Shown here in pieces: positions 8,360 to 54,692 of a DNA stretch of 64,000 bases; the stretch's first letter is position 1; each line of letters opens with the position of its first letter. Origin of the DNA: an uncultured Caulobacterales bacterium (GTDB lineage Bacteria > Pseudomonadota > Alphaproteobacteria > Caulobacterales > Maricaulaceae); NCBI GenBank assembly GCA_937927825.1, contig CALFWV010000042.1:9980-73979 (forward strand). Direction: 5' to 3'. The notes beneath the pieces were generated by a model. The model saw only the letters and a list, made by a program, of their open reading frames with translations, made no database searches and was not told where the DNA came from. The position numbers and the translations under genes are program-made.

Positions 8360-8944
8360 TTATTCCGGCGGGTCAAGAACCTCCACGCGAATTTGCCTCA
8401 CATCAACATAGAGCAACTCCCCGGTTTCCCCCGGCCAAATAGAGGCATGATCAAGGCCTTGCTGAGCGGTTAAAGCGCCCGGACGGAACTCCATTTCATA
8501 ATCTGCCCAGTCAGTGGTCAAGGTCCGTCGCTTCCAACCACTATCCCCGGATCCGGCTGAAAAATATCCGATATCAAATGTCTTCAACGGATTTAGCCTA
8601 GAGGCGCGGGCCGTGACCGTCATACGCAGATTTCGAGTCGCAAAAGCCCGTTCATATTCCGGCCCCAAAGGGGCAAATACACCGGGCCCGGGCGGCAAGC
8701 TATCGCGGGCAGCGGTACTGCTCAAACGCGCATAGGCTGGCTCCCCGCCCGCGGCTGCAACAAACTCAGCTTGGGTGCCGGGTTGGGCCGTCAAACGTAC
8801 CAATTCTTCACCGGACAACGTGTAGCCAAATTTATAAATTTCTGTTTCTGTCAAATCTGCGCGCTCTCCAAATGACAAAGCAAGCGCAATGATACCAGCC
8901 ACAATCAAGGCGGCCAGCGGATAGAAAAATCGGTCTTTCAACAT
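8360..8944 (-). CDS. Hypothetical protein with N-terminal membrane anchor and beta-rich C-terminal domain
   Basis: Hydrophobic FFYPLAALIVAGIIALALSFG followed by an alternating beta-strand pattern; fills the gap cleanly. Confidence 0.75.
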   Translation of the reverse strand: MLKDRFFYPLAALIVAGIIALALSFGERADLTETEIYKFGYTLSGEELVRLTAQPGTQAEFVAAAGGEPAYARLSSTAARDSLPPGPGVFAPLGPEYERAFATRNLRMTVTARASRLNPLKTFDIGYFSAGSGDSGWKRRTLTTDWADYEMEFRPGALTAQQGLDHASIWPGETGELLYVDVRQIRVEVLDPPE

Positions 8945-9058: not shown

Positions 9059-9613
9059 ATGCCAACCCCAGCTAAAATTACATTTACATGTCTCATCGCG
9101 ACTTGCCTCGCAGGAACAGCCTTTGCTGCACCGCCCGAAGCAAATATGGACGCGGAAATTCTCGCCGAAAAAATAGATGAAAGACTGTCTGACCATAAGG
9201 TCGACATTGCAAAATCTACGGCCAGGTTAAAGCGTAAGCTCGAAAAAGGGCAAGCCAAAGCAGAAGGCGACGTCTCGGAAGAAATTGAAGTCGTGATGGA
9301 TGTGCTGGAAGAGGCTTTTGCCGATGACGGTTTATTCCGCGGCCTCGCCGCGATGTTCAGCGATCTCGCCAGCGATTTAGATGTGGAAACGGATGACGGG
9401 AAAACAACGCTCTCATTTGACGGCGCAAAAATCGGTCAAATTGAACGTCGCAAAAGCCGTGACAGCGAAGACAGCTTTTCTATTTCCGGATTAGGAAAGA
9501 ACCTGACATTTGACCGCGAAACGATTGTCAAGGACGGGAAATCCAAAACCCGTATCGTCATTGATATGGACGGCGAAGATGAGATTGACATCACCTTACC
9601 CCAAATAGATTAA
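9059..9613 (+). CDS. Hypothetical secreted acidic protein
   Basis: Signal peptide ending ...LAGTAFA; D/E-rich mature region; GGAG RBS upstream. Confidence 0.75.
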   Translation: MPTPAKITFTCLIATCLAGTAFAAPPEANMDAEILAEKIDERLSDHKVDIAKSTARLKRKLEKGQAKAEGDVSEEIEVVMDVLEEAFADDGLFRGLAAMFSDLASDLDVETDDGKTTLSFDGAKIGQIERRKSRDSEDSFSISGLGKNLTFDRETIVKDGKSKTRIVIDMDGEDEIDITLPQID

Positions 9614-9624
9614 AGACAAATCGT

Positions 9625-11538
9625 CTAGACTAAAAATAATACGGCGCGCTCATCGGCGCGCTCCCGCAAGGCGCTCCCCAACATATCATTTAATTCGTCA
9701 GTGAAACGATCCGATGCCGCCTCTGCCCAAGCAGTTTGGACCGCCTTTATAAGGTCCGGGCGTTGCTTGTTGACGGCCGAACGCACCCGCCCATCGGTTA
9801 GAATTTGGCGCGCAAGAACCGGAACTTTAGCACTTCGCATTTTCCCGGACAAAGCCTTGCGTCCATATATATATGTCCCGCCCGCCAATGCTCCGCCAAC
9901 GACAATTCCCAATGGGTTGAGAAAGAGCGGCGCAAATAAATTCGCATGCGCCAGAAGGGAACCGATGAGAATGGCAGATAATGTCGTCCCAACAAGGGCC
10001 GTGTCCGACTCCATCGACCCCACATGCGGCATGGCCAGAGACAAGCCTTCCAAATGACGCGAGACATGTTGCGAATCCGTCAGAGACAGGACCATGGCAG
10101 GCAATCCATGATCTCTGCACAGCGGGTCTGTCACGGTTTCAATATCGCGCTGCAACCCCGCAAACCAGACATCAATGACCGGACGCAAAGCCGCCTGTGC
10201 GGCATCGGAGGCGAGCCACGTCGCGACGCGCTTATTGAGTTCAGCCTCAACATCGTCCAAGCTTTTAATCTGACCGTTACGCCAATCCCGGAAGGTTGGC
10301 AAAATACAGGCCTCGGTGATTGCGTCGACCAGGACCGGAGCCAAGGTTCGGCCCAAATCATTGGCAGATTTCTCCGCTTTGACAGAAATGTCTCCGCCGG
10401 GCCGCGTGTGTTTATCCACTTCGGACTTAAAACTCGCATGAAGATATTCAAATCGCCCAAGCCAAGATAGGCCGCGTGCGATTGCAAACTCAGGTTCGGC
10501 CCCGCGAACAACGCGGGCTTTTGGAAAGGCCGATTTCGTGGCCGGCAGAACCAGCGGTAGACGCGACGCGCCGCCGGTCAGTAAGACCGTATCCGGAAAC
10601 GTCCCCTCTTTGTCGCCGCCAAGGTTTTCAACGGTTTCTTTCAACGCATAGTCAAACGCCGTGCGCCAACTATAGCCGTGCAATGCGGCCAGAGGTTTAT
10701 CCAATATGGCCTCTGCATCCGCCTTATCTATCCGGATATCAAAGACGACACCCCTGCCGATGGGCAGACGTTTCAACAATTCAACCGGAACGTCTTCCCC
10801 CGTGAAATACGCCTCCTTCGCTTCCCGGCACCAATATTCCATGATGGGACGGTAATGCGGATATTTTTCAATTAGCGCTTCGATTTTTTTGCGGTCTTTT
10901 TGGCGCGCGAGATTCAACTCAAAAATCTCAGTATCGAGAAGGCCCGACCCCAAAATATTATGTCCGACGTCCTGCGCGTCCAAATCCCGGCAATAGGTAA
11001 AGTCGGTCGTCGAAGACCCGATATCCACGATTAAAACAGACGCCCGCGTGTCTTCAATTGAGAGATAGCCTTGCTCCAAAGCCGTCATCAATGCCGCCCG
11101 GGATTCCGGAACAATCCGAACCGTTTTTAAACCCGATGTATGAAAAACATCTCGGTAGGCTTCACGGTCCTCCGCACTCCACCCGCTCGGGCAACCGACA
11201 ATAAACTGACTATCTTTCGGGCCCAAAATCGTGCCATCCTGTGTCAATCCGTCAATCAAAGCTTGGGTAAACATGAAGGTCGGCACCCTGACCGAGTCCA
11301 AATCCAGCTCTCTGGACTTGAATTTTACCGCCACATTCGCTTGGGGGCCTAAGGCGGCCAAATTCAGCGCATCCACACCAATTTTCACGCCGGACTTATC
11401 CGTTGCGACCGCTGTGACAAAACTCCGCCGTCCCCGCCACTCCAGTATTTCGGGTTCGCGCACAGTTGCCCCAAAAGCCCGGCCCAAAGCTGTTTCGCCG
11501 TGGCCGAGATCAAACCCAATAAATTCCAGATGTTTCAT
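9625..11538 (-). CDS. Atypical Hsp70/actin-fold ATPase with C-terminal helical and hydrophobic region
   Basis: GFDLGHGET (phosphate 1), VGCPSGW, VPESRAAL, IVDIGSSTTDFT (phosphate 2), LGSGLLD, VLLTGGASRLP, EPEFAIARGL match Hsp70 NBD motifs. The ATG at 11538 overlaps the upstream TGA (ATGA); the ORF track start is 11550. Confidence 0.88.
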   Translation of the reverse strand: MKHLEFIGFDLGHGETALGRAFGATVREPEILEWRGRRSFVTAVATDKSGVKIGVDALNLAALGPQANVAVKFKSRELDLDSVRVPTFMFTQALIDGLTQDGTILGPKDSQFIVGCPSGWSAEDREAYRDVFHTSGLKTVRIVPESRAALMTALEQGYLSIEDTRASVLIVDIGSSTTDFTYCRDLDAQDVGHNILGSGLLDTEIFELNLARQKDRKKIEALIEKYPHYRPIMEYWCREAKEAYFTGEDVPVELLKRLPIGRGVVFDIRIDKADAEAILDKPLAALHGYSWRTAFDYALKETVENLGGDKEGTFPDTVLLTGGASRLPLVLPATKSAFPKARVVRGAEPEFAIARGLSWLGRFEYLHASFKSEVDKHTRPGGDISVKAEKSANDLGRTLAPVLVDAITEACILPTFRDWRNGQIKSLDDVEAELNKRVATWLASDAAQAALRPVIDVWFAGLQRDIETVTDPLCRDHGLPAMVLSLTDSQHVSRHLEGLSLAMPHVGSMESDTALVGTTLSAILIGSLLAHANLFAPLFLNPLGIVVGGALAGGTYIYGRKALSGKMRSAKVPVLARQILTDGRVRSAVNKQRPDLIKAVQTAWAEAASDRFTDELNDMLGSALRERADERAVLFLV

Positions 11539-12476
11539 GATCGCACCCAAACAGTCCCGCGGCGCAAGAGGCTTCCGTCTTCGCGCAATAGGGCCGGAGC
11601 CGCCATTTCGATTTTCGGCCCCTCCCCCATGCCGGGTAACTCATCAAAATAATCCGAGGTTTTTTTGGAATATGTAACGACCGACACGCCGCCAGAGCGC
11701 AACAAGCTCGGCAGCTCTTTTTCAATCAATTCCAGCGCAAAATCACTGTCGCCCGCGCTGCCCGCTTCCAACAAGTTCTGCAGCATAGCAGCCAAGCGGG
11801 GCGTATCCGCCCAATGGGTTTGCACCTGCGGTTCGGCCAAGCGCAGTAATATGTGATCAGCCGTTTTCAGGGCGTCTTCGATTTGCCCGATGAGTCCGGG
11901 CGCGTCCAAAGTCAGCCGCGCCTCCGCCTTAAATTGCCGCCCGGTGTGATCTTCCAACGCTGCAGGCGGTTTTGTTCGCGGCAAGAGTGACATGAGCTTT
12001 TTCCAGCGTTTTGGCTCAAGCGTGTGTAACCCGGCCAAAACGGCGGCAGATAAAATGGCAAGCCCTGCGCCTTGTATAAGCCCAACAACAGCCAAAGCTG
12101 CCGCCGCGCCGTAAAATAATGTAGGCCTGCCCAGCACACCTGATACACCGACGGATGGCGTTCCCGTTTCCACATATTTTACGTCTGCGGTAACGGCGCG
12201 GTCTAAAACACCCGCGCCGGATTTGATCACTTCAATCAACCAAAGCCCCGCTTTTTGTAAGGCGGGATCTTCCGTGGTCCGTGCAAAGGCCGCCCCAGTT
12301 CGGTCCAAGACACTGCGTATGGCGCTCACCGTTTGGGCAGAGGAAAGCGCGCCTTCGCCTCTCACGGATAGGGCCTTCTCCAGCGCCGATCGTTCTCGCG
12401 CAAACCCGGGCAAAAGGGACGGGGTCGTCACCTCTGTGCGGGCGAGGTGACCCGGCAATTTCGATAGGCTTTCCAT
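11535..12476 (-). CDS. Membrane protein with C-terminal GrpE-like domain
   Basis: Start MESLSK at 12476; central hydrophobic hairpin LFYGAAAALAVVGLIQGAGLAILSAAVLAGL; C-terminus LLRSGGVSVV...YFDELP...MAAPALLREDGSLLRRGTVWV resembles the GrpE beta-domain. Confidence 0.75.
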   Translation of the reverse strand: MESLSKLPGHLARTEVTTPSLLPGFARERSALEKALSVRGEGALSSAQTVSAIRSVLDRTGAAFARTTEDPALQKAGLWLIEVIKSGAGVLDRAVTADVKYVETGTPSVGVSGVLGRPTLFYGAAAALAVVGLIQGAGLAILSAAVLAGLHTLEPKRWKKLMSLLPRTKPPAALEDHTGRQFKAEARLTLDAPGLIGQIEDALKTADHILLRLAEPQVQTHWADTPRLAAMLQNLLEAGSAGDSDFALELIEKELPSLLRSGGVSVVTYSKKTSDYFDELPGMGEGPKIEMAAPALLREDGSLLRRGTVWVRS

Positions 12477-12615
12477 AAGCTTGGATGTTGGGGGTGGAGG
12501 CGGATGAGTCAAGCCGTGTCGGGCGGTCGCGTTTTCCCGTTCATTTACCGTTGGGTTTTTCGCCAGACACGCATTTGTGCATCGTATTTTCATATTTCAC
12601 GGATTAAATAGCTCT

Positions 12616-14653: not shown

Positions 14654-14890
14654 CTATTCAGCGGCCAGTTCAATTTCGATTTCATCTTCTGCTTCATACA
14701 CTAATATATCGGCGGGCTGACAATCGAGCTCCCGGCAAAGCAAATCCAGTGTTGAGAAACGCACCGCCCGCGCTTTACCCGTTTTCAGAATAGATAAATT
14801 GGCCAACGTAATACCAACACGTTCGGCGAGCTCCGTCAGTGACATTTTTCGGTCCAAAAGAACGCGATCGAGATTAACTTTAATAGCCAT
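14654..14890 (-). CDS. XRE/Cro-C1 HTH transcriptional regulator (YozG family)
   Basis: MAIKVNLDRVLLDRKMSLTELAERVGITLANLSILKTGKARAVRFSTLDLLCRELDCQPADIL; coupled to the DUF2975 gene. Confidence 0.93.
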   Translation of the reverse strand: MAIKVNLDRVLLDRKMSLTELAERVGITLANLSILKTGKARAVRFSTLDLLCRELDCQPADILVYEAEDEIEIELAAE

Positions 14891-15420
14891 TAGATTGTCA
14901 GTTCCTGATCGGCCCGAAGGGCTGCGCCGTGGCGAAAGGCTTCAGAAATGACAGCAATCACAAAAATAAAAAACCACGTTCCCAGACGAATATCCAAATG
15001 TGACCCATCCACGCTCTGCCCATCGCCGCCAATGGCGAAGGAAGCAATCATCCGAAAAACTTCCGTCACGGCGAAAATAATCCAAATATTTCGAAGCCGC
15101 GCAATATTCTCAGGTAAGAACGGGTCGCCATGGATAACAGCCTTAACCACGCCGCGCAGTAATTTCAGAACGAAAAACCAGCCGACAGCCACAACCGCGC
15201 CCGCTAAACAGCGTCCCATCAAAGTCATAGGTTCAATTTGTGTCGACGCCTCGGCCAGCAGACTATCTCTAAGTCCGCTAGGAACCGCCATTATAATGGC
15301 CATGATTAACAGCAAAGCAAAAGAAACTCCAAACACCCATTGCGCCACCATAAGCAAGGGGGACAGCAGCTTCGCCATTGGCGTATCCGCTTGCATATTG
15401 ATTTGCGCGTCACTCATCAT
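14890..15420 (-). CDS. DUF2975 family membrane protein
   Basis: Four TM segments, GDPFLPENIARLRNI and C-terminal VISEAFRHGAALRADQELTI. Start ATG at 15420 or 15417 (the ORF track start at 15438 is a TTG inside the operator). Confidence 0.9.
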   Translation of the reverse strand: MMSDAQINMQADTPMAKLLSPLLMVAQWVFGVSFALLLIMAIIMAVPSGLRDSLLAEASTQIEPMTLMGRCLAGAVVAVGWFFVLKLLRGVVKAVIHGDPFLPENIARLRNIWIIFAVTEVFRMIASFAIGGDGQSVDGSHLDIRLGTWFFIFVIAVISEAFRHGAALRADQELTI

Positions 15421-15423
15421 AGA

Positions 15424-15442
15424 ATTATTGATAAACAATAAT
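15424..15442. promoter_or_regulatory. Inverted-repeat operator, probably for the YozG-like regulator
   Basis: ATTATTG-ATAAA-CAATAAT, perfect 7-bp arms 3 nt from the DUF2975 start codon. Confidence 0.6.
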
Positions 15443-22327: not shown

Positions 22328-22372
22328 TTGATCTCTGAAACGCCGCGTCTGTCACTGGTGACGCGGCTGCAT

Positions 22373-22400
22373 CTTGAAGAGTAAGACTGAATTCCTATCT
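22373..22400 (+). promoter_or_regulatory. RpoH (sigma32) heat-shock promoter of clpB
   Basis: CTTGAA-N15-CCTATCT, 56 nt upstream of the clpB ATG. Confidence 0.7.
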
Positions 22401-22456: not shown

Positions 22457-25030
22457 ATGGACATTCAAGCCTACACTCAACGCGCGCGGAGCGTGATACA
22501 GGCGGCGCAAACAGAAGCCGTTACCCGCGACCATCAACAACTTGTGCCCGCCCATATTTTACGCAGCCTACTGCATGAAGACGGCGGCTTACCCCGTAAT
22601 CTCGTAAAAATGGCGGGAACATCGCCCGATGCGGTTGATACGGCGGTCAATCAAACCCTGAACAAATTACCAAAAGTCGAAGGGGGATCGGGTCTGTCCT
22701 TGTCTAAAGCTGCGACGAAAGTCTTTGCAGTAGCAGAGAAAACAGCCAAAGACGCTGGCGACGCCTTTGTCACCCTTGAACGTCTCTTACTGGCGACGGT
22801 TACAAATGCGGATAAAGATTTGCGCGGCGCCCTTTCCACGTCCGGATTAGATGCAAAAAGGCTAGGCGAAGCCATTGCCTCCGTACGCTCCGACGACCCC
22901 GTAACCTCCGATGCCGCCGAGGATCAATATGAGGCCCTCTCCAAATATGCGCGTGATTTGACACAGGCCGCGCGGGACGGAAAGCTTGATCCCGTCATTG
23001 GACGGGACGAAGAAATTCGGCGAACGCTGCAAGTTCTCTCCCGGCGATCAAAAAACAACCCGCTTCTGATTGGTGAACCCGGAGTCGGAAAAACTGCGAT
23101 TGCCGAAGGCTTGGCCGTGCGTATCGTCTCCGGCGATGTGCCGGAATCTGTGCGGGAGAAGAGATTACTCGCACTGGATATGGGTGCACTCATAGCAGGC
23201 GCAAAATATCGCGGAGAGTTCGAGGAGCGGCTCAAAGCCGTGTTAAAAGAAATTGAGAAGGCCGACGGCCGAATCATTCTCTTCATCGACGAAATTCACA
23301 CATTGGTCGGCGCGGGCAAAGGCGACGGCGCGATGGATGCAGCCAACCTTCTAAAGCCTGCGCTCGCGCGCGGAGAACTTCATTGTATCGGCGCGACAAC
23401 ACTGGACGAGTATCGCAAACATTTAGAAAAAGACGCGGCCCTCGCGCGGCGTTTCCTGACCGTCTTTGTGACGGAGCCCACGGTAGAAGATACGATTTCT
23501 ATTCTGCGAGGTCTCAAAGATAAATATGAAGTCCATCACGGAATTCGTATCTCAGACGCGGCCATTGTATCTGCCGCGCAATTATCCAATCGCTATATCA
23601 CGGACCGCTTCCTGCCTGACAAGGCCATTGATTTGATGGACGAAGCCGCAAGTCGATTGCGGATGCAAGTCGACAGCAAGCCTGAAGCGCTGGATGAAAT
23701 TGACCGCCGCATTGTGCAATTGCGCATTGAGGTAGAAGCCCTGAAGAAAGAAAAAGATACGGCGTCAAAAACACGTTTGGAAAAACGTCAAGCTGAAATA
23801 GATGACTTGCAATCCCAATCCGATGAAATGACGTCAAGCTGGCAGGCTGAGAAAGCTAAACTTGCCAGTGCCACAAATATTGTCGAGGATTTAGACCGCG
23901 CCCGGTTTGAATTACAAGACGCGGTGCGGCGCGGTGACTATGAAACGGCGGGCCGTTTGCAACATGAGGACATCCCCGCATTGGAAGCCAAAGCTGCCGA
24001 GCTGGAAAAACGATCAGATGAGCCGAGCCTCGCGAGTGAAACCGTTACAGCGGAAACTATCGCAAATGTTGTGTCCCGTTGGACGGGCGTGCCCGTGGAA
24101 AAAATGCTGGAAGGCGAACGGGAAAAACTGCTCTCTATGGAAAGCGTTTTGGGCGCACGGGTTGTCGGACAGGAACGCGCCGTGGAGGCCGTGTCCGACG
24201 CGGTGCGCCGCGCGCGCGCCGGACTGCGCGATCCGCAACGTCCCATTGGCAGCTTTATGTTCCTTGGCCCAACGGGTGTCGGTAAAACCGAACTGACCAA
24301 AGCGCTTGCCGAATTCATGTTTGATGACGACCAAGCCATCACCCGGATGGATATGTCCGAATATATGGAGAAACATTCCGTTGCCCGCATGATCGGAGCA
24401 CCGCCCGGCTATGTGGGATATGATGAAGGCGGGGCATTGACAGAGGCCGTCCGCCGCCGCCCTTATCAGGTGGTTTTATTTGACGAAGTTGAGAAGGCCC
24501 ATCCGGATGTCTTTAATATCTTGCTGCAAGTTTTAGATGATGGACGCCTAACGGACGGTCAAGGCCGCACGGTTGACTTCCGCAACACACTTATCATCAT
24601 GACGTCCAATATTGGGGCGCAGCACCTGCTCAATCTCGCTGATGGAGATAATGTTCAGGCGGCAAAAGTGGGCGTAATGGCTGAGGTAAATGCGCATTTC
24701 CGCCCGGAGTTTTTGAACCGCATTGATGAAATTTTGCTGTTCGAAAGGTTGAAACCCGAACATATGGGCGCGATTGTCGATATTCAAATGCGACGATTGC
24801 AGGGCTGGTTGAAAGACAAGCAAATCACCGTCGAATTATCGAATGCGGCGCGGGAACATCTCGCCAAGGCAGGTTATGATCCAAGTTTTGGTGCGCGTCC
24901 GCTTAAACGGGTCATCCAAAAATTGGTGCAGGATGAACTGGCCCGCGAACTTCTGGGTGGTCGCATTGCCGATGGGGATACAGTTAAAGTCAACGCGGCG
25001 GGCGGGAAAATCCGAGTCAGCGTCGGCTAA
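22457..25030 (+). CDS. clpB: ATP-dependent chaperone ClpB
   Basis: Two AAA+ modules ([15 protein letters not shown]; [18 protein letters not shown]), coiled-coil middle domain, FGARPLKR. Confidence 0.99.
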
Positions 25031-50447: not shown

Positions 50448-51614
50448 TCAGTCAACCAAACCATCCCAGAAAGACTTCGCCTTATCAAAGAAATTTCGGC
50501 TTTGCGGCGATTCAGAATGGGTGCCACCTTCTAACGCAAATTCTTCGAGAAGCTCTTTCTGGCGCTTGGTCAGGCCGGACGGCGTCTCCACCGCAAGCTC
50601 GATATACATGTCGCCGCGTTTGTCAGAGCGTAGGACACTCATCCCTTTACCGCGTAAGCGCAGGCGTTTTCCGGTTTGACTGCCGTCGCTGACTTTGATC
50701 TTTGACCGTCCGCCATCAATGGTCGGAATTTCAATGTCACCGCCGAGCGCAGCCGTCGTCATGGGCACAGGGGCGCGGCAGAACAGGTTCGCGCCGTCGC
50801 GTTCGAAAAGGTCATGCGGTTTAACGCTAACGAAAATATAAAGATCGCCGCGCTGCGTCCCGCCGCTCGCCCCGCGTCGGGGCGCGGCATCGCCTTGGCC
50901 CGTCAGGCGGATGCGCGTACCGTCCTCGACACCCGCCGGAATGGATACATCGAGTTCTGTTTCTTGGCGCGTCTGGCCAACACCGTCGCAAGATGTGCAG
51001 GGGTTTGAGACATATTCACCCTGCCCGCCGCAGGTTGGACAGGCGCGTTCCATTTGGAAAAACCCTTGCTGCGTACGCACGCGCCCTTGTCCGGCGCAGG
51101 TTGAACAGGTTTCAACACTCGCCCCCGGTTCCGCGCCCATACCATCACAGCGCTCGCAATCTTCCGCAATCGGTACGGTGATATCAATGTCTTTCCCGGC
51201 GAAAGCTTCCTCAAGCGTGATTTCAAGCTCATAGCGAAGGTCGGAGCCGCGCTGTACGGTTTGACGTTGACGCCGTCCACCGCCGCCAAACATATCGGCA
51301 AATCCGCCGCCGCCCGCGCCGCCGCCAAAAATCTGGCTGAAAATATCATTGAAATCCTGGAAGCCGCCAGCACCACCCGCGCCGCCGCCCTCAAAGGCCG
51401 CATGGCCCATCCGGTCATAGGCTGCGCGTTTCTGCTCGTCCGAGAGAATACCGTAAGCCTCATTAAGTTCTTTGAACCGCGCTTCGGCTTTAGGGTCATC
51501 GGGATGCCGATCAGGATGGCATTCCATGGCCTTCTTGCGGAAGGCCGACTTCATCGTTTTGGCATCAGCGTTTTTAGCTACGCCGAGCGTCTCATAATAA
51601 TCTCGTTTTGACAT
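50448..51614 (-). CDS. dnaJ: Chaperone DnaJ
   Basis: [11 protein letters not shown] motif, G/F-rich linker, four CxxCxGxG repeats. Confidence 0.99.
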
Positions 51615-52516: not shown

Positions 52517-54427
52517 TTACGCAACGTTTTCGTCGTCAACATCTTCAAATTCAGCATCGACAACATCGTCGTCATCATCGGCTTGATCCGCTTGTGACGC
52601 CGGACCGGTATCTGCGTCTGCGGCGGCATTTTCATACATGCTTTGTCCGACTTTCATCAGCGCTGCAGACAGGACCTGAACCTTATCGACGATAAGCGCC
52701 GTGTCTTCGCCTTCGGAAACGTCTTTGGCTTCCGCGAGGGCTTCCTCGACAGCGACCTTGTCTTCCTCAGAAATCGCATCTGCGTGCTCTTTCAGGTCTG
52801 ACTCGGCCTTATGGATCATGGCTTCGGCTTGGTTCTTGGCTTCGACCAGCTCGCGGCGGGCTTTATCGCCTTCCGCATTGGCTTCAGCGTCTTTGACCAT
52901 CGCTTCGATATCTTCATCGCTTAGGCCGCCGCTGGCTTGGATACGGATTTGTTGTTCCTTACCGGTGGCATTATCTTTGGCCGACACGTTCACAATACCA
53001 TTGGCATCAATGTCAAAAGTCACTTCGATTTGCGGCATGCCCCGCGGTGCGGGCGGAATACCAACCAAGTCAAACTGACCAAGAAGTTTATTATCGGCCG
53101 CCATTTCGCGTTCGCCTTGGCTGACCTTAATCGTCACAGCAGACTGATTATCTGTCGCGGTTGAATAGACCTGAGACTTCTTCGTCGGAATGGTTGTGTT
53201 GCGGTCAATCATGCGTGTGAACAACCCGCCTTCGGTCTCAATACCAAGGGACAATGGTGTCACGTCCAGCAAGAGAACGTCTTTGACATCGCCCTGCAAA
53301 ACACCGGCCTGGATAGCGGCGCCCATGGCCACAACCTCATCGGGGTTCACACCCTTATGCGGCTCTTTACCGAAGTATTTTGTCACAGCCGCCTGAACAG
53401 CCGGCATACGCGTCATGCCGCCGACGAGAACAACGTCATCAATATCAGCGGCCGTTAACCCTGCATCCGCAATCGCTTTTTTGATTGGCGCGATGGTGCG
53501 CTTGATAAGATCATCGACAAGCTTCTCCAGCTTGGCGCGGGACAATTTCATGTTCAAATGTTTCGGGCCGGTCGCATCTGCCGTGATGAAGGGGAGGTTC
53601 ACTTCATAAGACGAGGCTGTGGACAGCTCTTTTTTGGCTTTCTCGGCTTCTTCGCGCAAACGCTGAAGGGCAAGTTTGTCTTTCTTAAGATCAATCGCAT
53701 TGTCTTTTTTGAACTCATCCGCAAAATATTCAACGATACGCATATCGAAGTCTTCCCCGCCGAGGAATGTATCGCCATTCGTGGATTTCACTTCAAAAAC
53801 GCCGTCTCCGATTTCAAGAACGGACACGTCAAATGTACCGCCGCCAAGATCGTAAACCGCAATCGTTTTGCCGTCTTCTTTATTCATGCCGTAAGCCAGC
53901 GCTGCCGCTGTCGGCTCGTTGATAATACGCAGAACTTCGAGACCGGCAATTTTACCGGCATCTTTTGTCGCCTGACGCTGAGCATCATTAAAATAGGCCG
54001 GAACCGTAATCACAGCCTGGGTGACTGTCGCGCCGAGATAATCCTCGGCCGTTTCTTTCATCTTCGTCAATGTCATGGCGGAGATTTCAGCCGGGGAAAG
54101 TTCCTTGTCACGGCCCTGAACATAGGCGTCGCCGCCGCGACCTTTGACGATTTTATAAGGGACGAGTTTGGCGTCCTTCTTAATGGCCGGATCTGTAAAT
54201 GGACGTCCGATAAGGCGTTTCACCGCGAAATATGTATGTTCCGGGTTCGTCACCGCTTGGCGTTTCGCGGGCGTGCCGATGAGGCGCTCGCCATCCTCGG
54301 TAAAGGCCACAACAGACGGGGTGGTCCGTTGACCTTCCGCGTTTTCAATAACTTTTGGCGTATCGCCATCCATGACCGCAACACAGGAGTTTGTGGTGCC
54401 TAGGTCAATGCCAATCACTTTAGACAT
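52517..54427 (-). CDS. dnaK: Chaperone DnaK (canonical Hsp70)
   Basis: [61 protein letters not shown], acidic C-terminus VVDAEFEDV. Confidence 0.99.
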
Positions 54428-54539
54428 GTATCATGCTCCAAATTGGGGGCAGGCCCGTTTGCGGCACCTGCGTAAACTATATTAAGACTGAGAGGTTCAA
54501 ACGCTACGTAAAGCGCGCGTTGAACCCCTTTCCAGCCCG

Positions 54540-54567
54540 ATATGGGGCGGCAAGACAGACTCGCAAG
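54540..54567 (-). promoter_or_regulatory. RpoH (sigma32) promoter of dnaK
   Basis: Minus strand CTTGCG-N14-CCCCATAT. Confidence 0.72.
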
Positions 54568-54692
54568 GGCAAAAATAGGGTTTTTTCACTCTAACGTAAA
54601 TTTATGGGAGCCTCCGCCGAATTCCGAACTTACTTAAAATTCACTGTCAAATTGTCAGGTGCGCCTTACACGCGTTGAGAGGGGAGCCACAC

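Follow-up and report, generated by a model that had tools for sequence, protein, structure and literature searches.

In a stretch of DNA from an uncultured Caulobacterales bacterium of the family Maricaulaceae (GenBank assembly GCA_937927825.1, contig CALFWV010000042.1, positions 9,980 to 73,979; this whole stretch of 64,000 nucleotides is referred to below as the window, and all coordinates are given within it), two adjacent genes specify what appears to be the Hsp70-GrpE engine in a new architecture, membrane-bound, devoid of a client-binding domain and of a J-protein, and apparently undescribed in the searchable literature. The upstream gene, which we call gene 1 (11535-12476, minus strand, 313 amino acids), codes for a membrane protein with a GrpE-like part, and gene 2 (9625-11538, minus strand, 637 amino acids) codes for an Hsp70-like membrane ATPase; both intervals include the stop codon, and for brevity the same names are used for the protein products. 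The two genes share the tetranucleotide ATGA at 11535-11538, where the sequence reads ...GTG CGA TCA TGA AAC..., with the initiation codon of gene 2 embedded in the end of gene 1, and the junction in related loci is likewise an overlap or a short gap. Direct reading of both open reading frames and of their junction bears out the initial annotation of this DNA, which had described two minus-strand genes joined in this way.

The N-terminal part of gene 2 is a nucleotide-binding domain (NBD) of the Hsp70 type, placed at residues 6-365 (10444-11523, minus strand) by comparison of a family profile with PDB sequences and by the distribution of invariant residues. The single sequence scores 30 bits against the Pfam HSP70 model PF00012 (cut-off 20.6), with residues 105-357 aligned to profile positions 129-368. 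The family profile, derived from close relatives and from six relatives at 28-34% identity, aligns over its positions 9-365 with residues 3-379 of DnaK at E=5e-13, and the alignment includes all four subdomains, IIB among them; all 60 PDB matches listed for this profile are Hsp70s (DnaK, BiP, mortalin, Hsc70 and Ssb). The invariant residues of gene 2 are D10, F73-K74, E145-S-R-A-A, D172-x-G-S-S-x-T-D179, T321-G-G-x-x-R326 and E348-P-E. The counterparts of DnaK residues D8, K70, E171, D194, T199, D201 and of its GGxxR motif are D10, K72 or K74, E145, D172, T177, D179 and T321-G-G-x-x-R326, and these catalytic and phosphate-binding positions are invariant or nearly so among relatives down to 29% identity. 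The full set of Hsp70 nucleotide-binding motifs noticed at the outset is thus present, with the Pfam score above cut-off, the whole DnaK NBD aligned and the key residues conserved; on this sequence evidence, the head of gene 2 is predicted to be a catalytically intact Hsp70-type ATPase.

An alternative reading is that the ASKHA head of gene 2 polymerizes at the membrane in the manner of MreB, FtsA, ParM or PilM, with gene 1 serving as an adaptor comparable to PilN or ZipA and its likeness to GrpE being convergent or too remote to matter. Several weak local similarities point that way. The NCBIfam matches of gene 2 are partial, weak and far below their cut-offs, and are scattered over DnaK, MreB, PRTRC_D, YegD and PilM-like models; gene 2 scores 23.2 bits against MreB_Mbl (cut-off 27), 39 against PRTRC_D (cut-off 215) and 18 against the YegD model NF008673 (cut-off 331), reaches E=0.013 with a PilM-like model, and has a weak local match to a ParM-like PHROG. 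The similarity of gene 1 to GrpE, discussed below, is itself moderate. All of this is outweighed by the profile comparison, in which the match is to Hsp70 NBDs over all four subdomains and no actin, MreB or ParM occurs among the 60 PDB matches listed, as well as by the best MreB match in the single-sequence search, which has only E=0.007, and by the structural search with gene 1, which is led by GrpE proteins and not by PilN or ZipA. We therefore regard the filament as very unlikely.

Beyond residue 365, over about 270 amino acids, the family profile of gene 2 has no sequence match in PDB or Pfam. This part of the protein can be divided into three portions, all read on the minus strand. A middle region (residues 366-510; 10009-10443) has conserved P414, W419, W458, P472 and P480 in the alignments. 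It is followed by a hydrophobic hairpin (residues ~511-556; 9871-10008), which the Kyte-Doolittle scan finds as a single stretch of about 46 residues with a conserved N/G-P-x-G turn, where P542 is invariant and G544 nearly so; this is the hairpin that had been suspected from the bare sequence. The C-terminal tail (residues 557-637; 9628-9870) is basic beside the membrane and has the invariant R577. Conservation of P414, W419, W458, P472, P480, P542 and R577 indicates that the region after the NBD is a real, constrained domain. It does not resemble the C-terminal half of DnaK: the substrate-binding β-sandwich and lid of Hsp70 were not found, the Pfam match ending at position 368 of the 599-position profile, and a DnaK-type hydrophobic interdomain linker after the NBD is not apparent on reading the sequence, no formal test having been applied. 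Neither gene 1 nor gene 2 has a dynamin or GTPase match in Pfam or NCBIfam.

The absence of these elements bears on the possibility that the pair is a specialized chaperone, in which the C-terminal region of gene 2 would be a new kind of client-binding domain for membrane proteins, helping to fold, insert or extract them, maybe with a borrowed DnaJ. Such a role would sit well with an NBD of the Hsp70 rather than the actin type and with a GrpE-like partner, with the presence of a canonical DnaJ in the genome, and with the placement of both proteins at the membrane, where such clients would be. It is at odds with the failure to detect either a substrate-binding domain or a lid of the Hsp70 type, with the lack of an apparent linker and with the observation that a J-domain gene is linked to the pair in no locus examined, and we consider it unlikely.

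The full-length AlphaFold model of gene 1 (mean predicted local distance difference test score, pLDDT, of 77) consists of an N-terminal domain, a hydrophobic segment and a C-terminal unit. The N-terminal domain (residues ~20-104; 12165-12419, minus strand) is made of three helices and a β-hairpin; it is modelled with pLDDT of 84-95 over residues 21-90 and has no significant structural match in Foldseek searches. The hydrophobic segment (residues ~117-152; 12021-12128, minus strand) was delimited from the Kyte-Doolittle scan, the alignments and the model; the scan shows one hydrophobic stretch of 33-36 residues with a conserved central Q-G turn (G132 and Q135 are the conserved residues), and in distant relatives two clear transmembrane helices are seen at the same position. 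A transmembrane hairpin had been proposed for gene 1 from the start, and the hydrophobic stretch with its conserved turn agrees with it. Its C-terminal flank is strongly basic (KRWKK...RTK), and the positive-inside rule accordingly predicts a cytoplasmic location for the C-terminal domain; basic residues likewise flank the cytoplasmic side of the hairpin in gene 2. The C-terminal domain (residues 185-313; 11538-11924, minus strand) has one long and two shorter helices followed by a small β-domain of about 50 residues, the order of elements found in GrpE.

The relationship of this domain to GrpE, which the initial annotation had suggested, was examined by structure comparison and by profile-profile alignment. 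Residues 185-313 were modelled on their own from an alignment of 41 sequences, five of them distant relatives, and the model has pLDDT of 90.8. A Foldseek comparison of this model with 350,542 PDB chains placed GrpE proteins in all of the first three positions: 3a6m_B from Thermus thermophilus (E=0.012, probability 0.99), 4ani_A from Geobacillus kaustophilus (E=0.03, probability 0.92) and 3a6m_A (E=0.079, probability 0.95), with human GrpEL1 (9bls_C) at rank 8. Independently, hhalign was used to align 31 GrpE sequences from Pseudomonadota genomes with 124 aligned sequences of the gene 1 C-terminus, giving P=1.3e-4 and a probability of 54%; with the option -M 50 these values became P=9e-5 and 59%, with a score of 37, a suggestive result that is below the level usually taken as proof. 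The score exceeds all controls: it is about 20 for either of two reversed profiles, while the highest value among 60 column shuffles is 18 and that among 60 shuffles of six-column blocks is 24. The extended alignment is collinear over the helices and the β-domain, and pairs the LxLxQxLLEA helix of the gene 1 family with the LLPVxDNLERAL helix of GrpE, ...L..L...GI.vV with ...L...L.khGV..I, and the strand G.LLRRG...V with GRLLRPAMV.V. R305/R306-G307 of gene 1 are conserved.

Several observations weigh against a GrpE-like membrane protein. Gene 1 has no match to the Pfam GrpE model PF01025 at E≤1, nor do any of 59 relatives at E≤0.01; more generally, gene 1 has no Pfam, NCBIfam, PADLOC or PHROG match. 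Hidden Markov model searches of PDB sequences with gene 1 or its family retrieved no GrpE chain, and Foldseek with the model of the whole protein gave weak helical-bundle matches and no GrpE, the signal being diluted in this floppy multi-domain model. The GrpE matches of the isolated domain are modest (E from 0.012 to 0.08, template modelling scores of 0.40-0.46, root-mean-square deviations of 8-14 Å); the low scores and large deviations may in part come from setting a monomer model against the extended helices of dimeric GrpE. A shallower profile placed the DNLERA motif of GrpE on another helix of gene 1, so that two helical registers have been obtained. As for the membrane segment, AlphaFold draws it as one helix, with pLDDT of about 60, which leaves one long helix to be weighed against the hairpin. 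Nevertheless, two unrelated methods arrive at the same family with the same register of the β-domain, and for this reason we judge remote homology to be likely, with GrpE heading the structural ranking and the hhalign P value of about 1e-4 standing above 120 shuffles and two reversals; that gene 1 carries a GrpE-derived domain is, in our estimate, a likely conclusion.

Pairing of the two genes is obligate, and their order is fixed. With gene 1 as the query, gene 2 was found directly downstream in 79 of 80 genome loci, and the sole exception is cut by the end of a contig. Five distant relatives of gene 1, at about 20-25% identity, are each followed by a gene of 642-682 codons; three of the five downstream products have faint or weak Pfam matches to HSP70 or MreB, and all five align with gene 2 over the full length at 29-34% identity. 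A scan of metagenomes with gene 2 alone, and hence independent of gene 1, yielded 80 loci. Among those with enough upstream sequence, an open reading frame of the gene 1 family directly precedes gene 2, in the same orientation, in all 18 close loci and in 51 of the 52 distant ones (29-36% identity). The 76 full-length relatives of gene 2 in the metagenome loci form no fewer than 11 clusters when grouped at 50% identity, and the G+C content of their loci ranges from 37% to 73%.

No third gene recurs beside the pair. Clustering of the open reading frames that flank the distant loci brought back gene 2 in 59 loci and gene 1 in 51, along with antisense shadow frames, and any other flanking family is seen in no more than about five of these loci. 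No J-domain gene stands beside the pair in any neighbourhood examined, and no GTPase is conserved as a partner, in keeping with the earlier suggestion of a self-contained module without a J-protein. Relatives of gene 2 sampled are uniform in length (about 640-680 amino acids), and no fused effector domains were found in 59 relatives of gene 1, the unusually long ones having been checked for fusions without any Pfam domain coming to light. In one metagenome locus (L146, 2845-4944), the stop-to-stop reading frame that matches the gene 1 family is about 700 codons long, compared with the usual 300 or so, and its extra part contains no recognizable Pfam domain. Taken together, the evidence makes it highly probable that gene 1 and gene 2 are functional partners.

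The pair is also found far from its alphaproteobacterial hosts. Plasmid2 of the cyanobacterium Calothrix brevissima NIES-22 (AP018209.1, 9838-12743) carries it, with both genes annotated as hypothetical; the gene 2 homologue is 31% identical over its full length, and the gene that precedes it is matched to the gene 1 family with a probability of 99.4%. This plasmid is conjugative, and the pair lies on it between genes of the phage integrase family. In another distant locus, from a metagenome (L115, 1735-9025), the pair forms the tail of an overlapping four-gene operon, after a double-AAA+ ATPase of 869 amino acids and a WD40 protein of 557 amino acids, with Trypco1 and a giant trypsin-TPR protein nearby, a setting that resembles conflict systems.

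In the window, gene 1 is preceded by two conserved promoter-like elements, identified from the window sequence and the related loci: a -35-like element CTTGACTC (12506-12513, minus strand) and a -10-like element CCCAACAT (12485-12492, minus strand), the latter located 8 nucleotides 5' of the gene 1 ATG. Of 76 related loci, 63 have a [CT]TTGAC box 5' of gene 1, and the consensus can be written as CTTGACTC-N13-CCCnACAT-N7-ATG (or, in another rendering, CTTGACTC-N13-CCCRACAT). The conserved promoter 7-8 nucleotides before the ATG favours the start of gene 1 at 12476 over a longer reading frame from 12593, and the same spacing suggests a gene 1 mRNA that is leaderless or nearly so. The motif resembles the sigma-32-type promoters found in the window upstream of dnaK (54528-54570, minus strand; CTTGCGA-N13-CCCCATAT) and of clpB (22372-22400, plus strand; CTTGAAG-N14-CCTATCT), and as a putative promoter it fits the alphaproteobacterial sigma-70 and sigma-32 consensus about equally.

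The canonical chaperone genes are encoded elsewhere in the window, as had been stated initially, and all three could be located by their coordinates: DnaK at 52517-54427, with a score of 900 bits against Pfam HSP70; DnaJ at 50448-51614, the sole dnaJ of the window and a part of the canonical dnaK operon; and ClpB at 22457-25030. The assembly has one canonical grpE, which lies on a different contig (G000:C35). Several other Pseudomonadota have a second, divergent paralogue of GrpE (G030:C89, G038:C133, G026:C32, G002:C84 and G034:C200), which scores 61-68 bits, against about 160-190 bits for the housekeeping protein.

The neighbours of the pair in the window are unremarkable: DsbD, a PhoD phosphatase and a fatty-acid hydroxylase, all of the housekeeping type, and an HTH_26/DUF2975 gene pair. 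DsbD and similar upstream neighbours are not conserved, being present in 6 of the 52 loci with full flanks. Downstream of the pair, a hypothetical protein of 194 amino acids with an apparent N-terminal membrane anchor (8360-8944, minus strand) is seen in 43 of these 52 loci, and an acidic hypothetical protein of 184 amino acids with an apparent signal peptide (9059-9613, plus strand) in 28; neither has a Pfam or PHROG match, and none was seen around distant copies. The HTH_26 and DUF2975 cassette (14654-15438, minus strand) lies 2-3 kilobases upstream of the pair and is found likewise near a very distant relative (L114, 2353-3174); since only 6 of the 52 close loci have it, the association is probably a coincidence.

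The phyletic distribution of the pair is sporadic. The gene 1 family profile matches 388 clusters at 50% identity (E≤1e-3). The closest homologues of both genes are in Litorimonas, Algimonas, Hellea and Robiginitomaculum, and in the GTDB family of the host, gene 2 is found in 34 of 81 genomes, belonging to 8 of 26 genera. Within the 8 carrier genera, almost every genome has gene 2, at 62-74% identity and with hardly any cases of more than one match. Outside this family, gene 2 was found in none of 400 other Pseudomonadota genomes at E≤1e-30, and the gene 1 profile matched none of 200 other alphaproteobacterial and none of 300 other Pseudomonadota genomes; as few candidates per genome are scored in this kind of search, these counts are lower bounds. 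No relative was confirmed in 2.9 million IMG/VR viral contigs, and one plasmid out of 72,556 carries the pair. The picture is that of a sporadic module that entered the lineage of Litorimonas, Hellea, Algimonas and Robiginitomaculum and was then vertically kept under purifying selection. A selected cellular function is indicated by the retention of the pair in single copy, through vertical descent and at 60-90% identity, in 8 genera and by its conserved promoter. Cultured carriers include Hellea balneolensis DSM 19091, Litorimonas cladophorae KCTC 23968 and Algimonas ampicilliniresistens NBRC 108219, which makes genetics on the pair possible.

The same distribution can be used to assess whether the pair is an anti-phage or conflict module, with gene 2 as a latent effector that, when triggered, damages or depolarizes the membrane and gene 1 as its regulator or sensor. 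Patchiness across bacteria, over the 388 clusters, the Calothrix copy between integrase genes on a conjugative plasmid, the distant copy in an operon with AAA+ ATPase and WD40 genes beside genes for Trypco1 and trypsin-TPR proteins of the kind that conflict systems typically have, and the existence of divergent Hsp70-GrpE sets in GTPase-centred conflict systems (PMC7159879) all speak for it. Yet neither protein matches a PADLOC-DB 2.0 family at E≤1, viruses and plasmids are nearly devoid of relatives in the searches just described, the pair behaves as a core gene set in nearly every genome of the 8 genera, its neighbours in the window are of the housekeeping type, and neither fused effector domains in 59 relatives of gene 1 nor marked variation in length in the sampled relatives of gene 2 is observed. 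The phyletic pattern in the host clade argues against a typical mobile defence system, and we consider a conflict role quite unlikely, somewhat more so than a chaperone role.

How the pair may work can be outlined as follows. The head of gene 2 would be a cytoplasmic Hsp70-type NBD, in which the substrate-binding domain is replaced by the region of about 270 residues that would send a helical hairpin into the inner membrane. The hairpin of gene 1 would hold the GrpE-homologous domain at the cytoplasmic face, on the same side of the membrane as the head. By analogy with GrpE acting on DnaK, this domain may bind lobes IB and IIB of the head, open the cleft and free ADP, so that the controlled step would be nucleotide exchange and not hydrolysis stimulated by a J-protein. 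With no domain for clients, gene 2 would transmit its ATP/ADP cycle to the C-terminal region inserted in the membrane, and the output would be directed to the membrane or to a membrane-embedded target, in its shaping, repair or maintenance, instead of general protein folding. The identities of the domains, the conservation of catalytic residues, a hydrophobic hairpin in each protein, the obligate pairing and the lack of a conserved third gene are shown by the data above, and binding between gene 1 and gene 2, ADP/ATP exchange activity, topology and output are all features that we infer; membrane remodelling, envelope quality control and phage defence, each named in the initial annotation, are conceivable outputs. 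On balance we lean toward this model as a whole, in which an ATP switch sits in the membrane together with an exchange factor dedicated to it. A more specific version, in which the Hsp70-type head drives a stalk-and-hairpin membrane module as an analogue of dynamin-like proteins, with the GrpE-derived exchange factor timing the cycle, is offered only tentatively and seems to us rather doubtful.

If the GrpE-like domain does act on the head, then the Hsp70-GrpE engine has found a second use as an independent switch at the membrane, and the pair would offer a tractable two-protein system for the study of the Hsp70 nucleotide cycle without clients. If the dynamin-like version is also true, the engine can work without clients or J-proteins, powered by ATP and gated by an exchange factor. 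Of the refutations that the initial annotation had itself proposed, neither a lack of structural similarity between gene 1 and GrpE nor a match of the pair to a characterized system was observed: the pair has no PADLOC match, gene 1 has no Pfam or NCBIfam match, and a full-text search of the literature produced no description of it. What came up were Hsp70/GrpE conflict systems linked to GTPases and cyanobacterial neighbourhoods of dynamin-like and DnaK genes, both of which are other arrangements.

Among Hsp70-family ATPases that depart from the domain plan of DnaK, YegD and HscC resemble gene 2 in just this respect, and gene 2 weakly matches the YegD model, with a score far below its cut-off, as given above. 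YegD and HscC are soluble proteins, and we know of no GrpE-like membrane partner for either. Dynamin-like proteins such as BDLP, DynA and SynDLP resemble gene 2 in the combination of a nucleotide-hydrolysing head and a long region with a membrane-inserting hairpin (the "paddle"), and they lend the idea of nucleotide-driven action on membranes; unlike them, gene 2 has an Hsp70-type ATPase as its head and not a GTPase, and no dynamin gene is found near the pair. In the "chaperone group" of cyanobacterial dynamin-like proteins, a gene with a DnaK domain lies downstream of the dynamin-like gene (PMC5827413). The conflict systems centred on the GAP1-N2 GTPase carry extra divergent Hsp70 and GrpE proteins, and some of these Hsp70s lack the peptide-binding domain (Kaur et al. 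2020, PMC7159879); the GTPase is their core, its partners are FNIII, DnaJ or TPR proteins, and Actinobacteria and Firmicutes are their main hosts. In these systems as in the present pair, the divergent Hsp70-like and GrpE-like genes stand apart from the housekeeping operon; the pair differs in having no conserved GTPase or other third gene and in that both of its proteins are membrane-anchored.

The closest known system is DnaK-GrpE. Gene 2 has the four-subdomain head of the Hsp70 type with all catalytic residues, gene 1 has helices and a small β-domain that resemble those of GrpE, and the genes are adjacent, as in many dnaK operons. The differences are considerable: gene 2 has no substrate-binding domain, lid or DnaK-type linker, and no J-protein is linked to it; gene 1 has an additional N-terminal helical domain, appears to lack the long N-terminal coiled coil of GrpE and is missed by the Pfam GrpE model; both proteins have membrane hairpins; and the host genome keeps its canonical DnaK, DnaJ and GrpE separately. 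In the accepted view, Hsp70 is a chaperone that binds clients, with J-proteins and exchange factors governing its cycle. The pair described here has dispensed with both the client-binding half and the J-protein, and has retained, from alphaproteobacteria to cyanobacteria, the Hsp70 engine together with an exchange factor-like partner.

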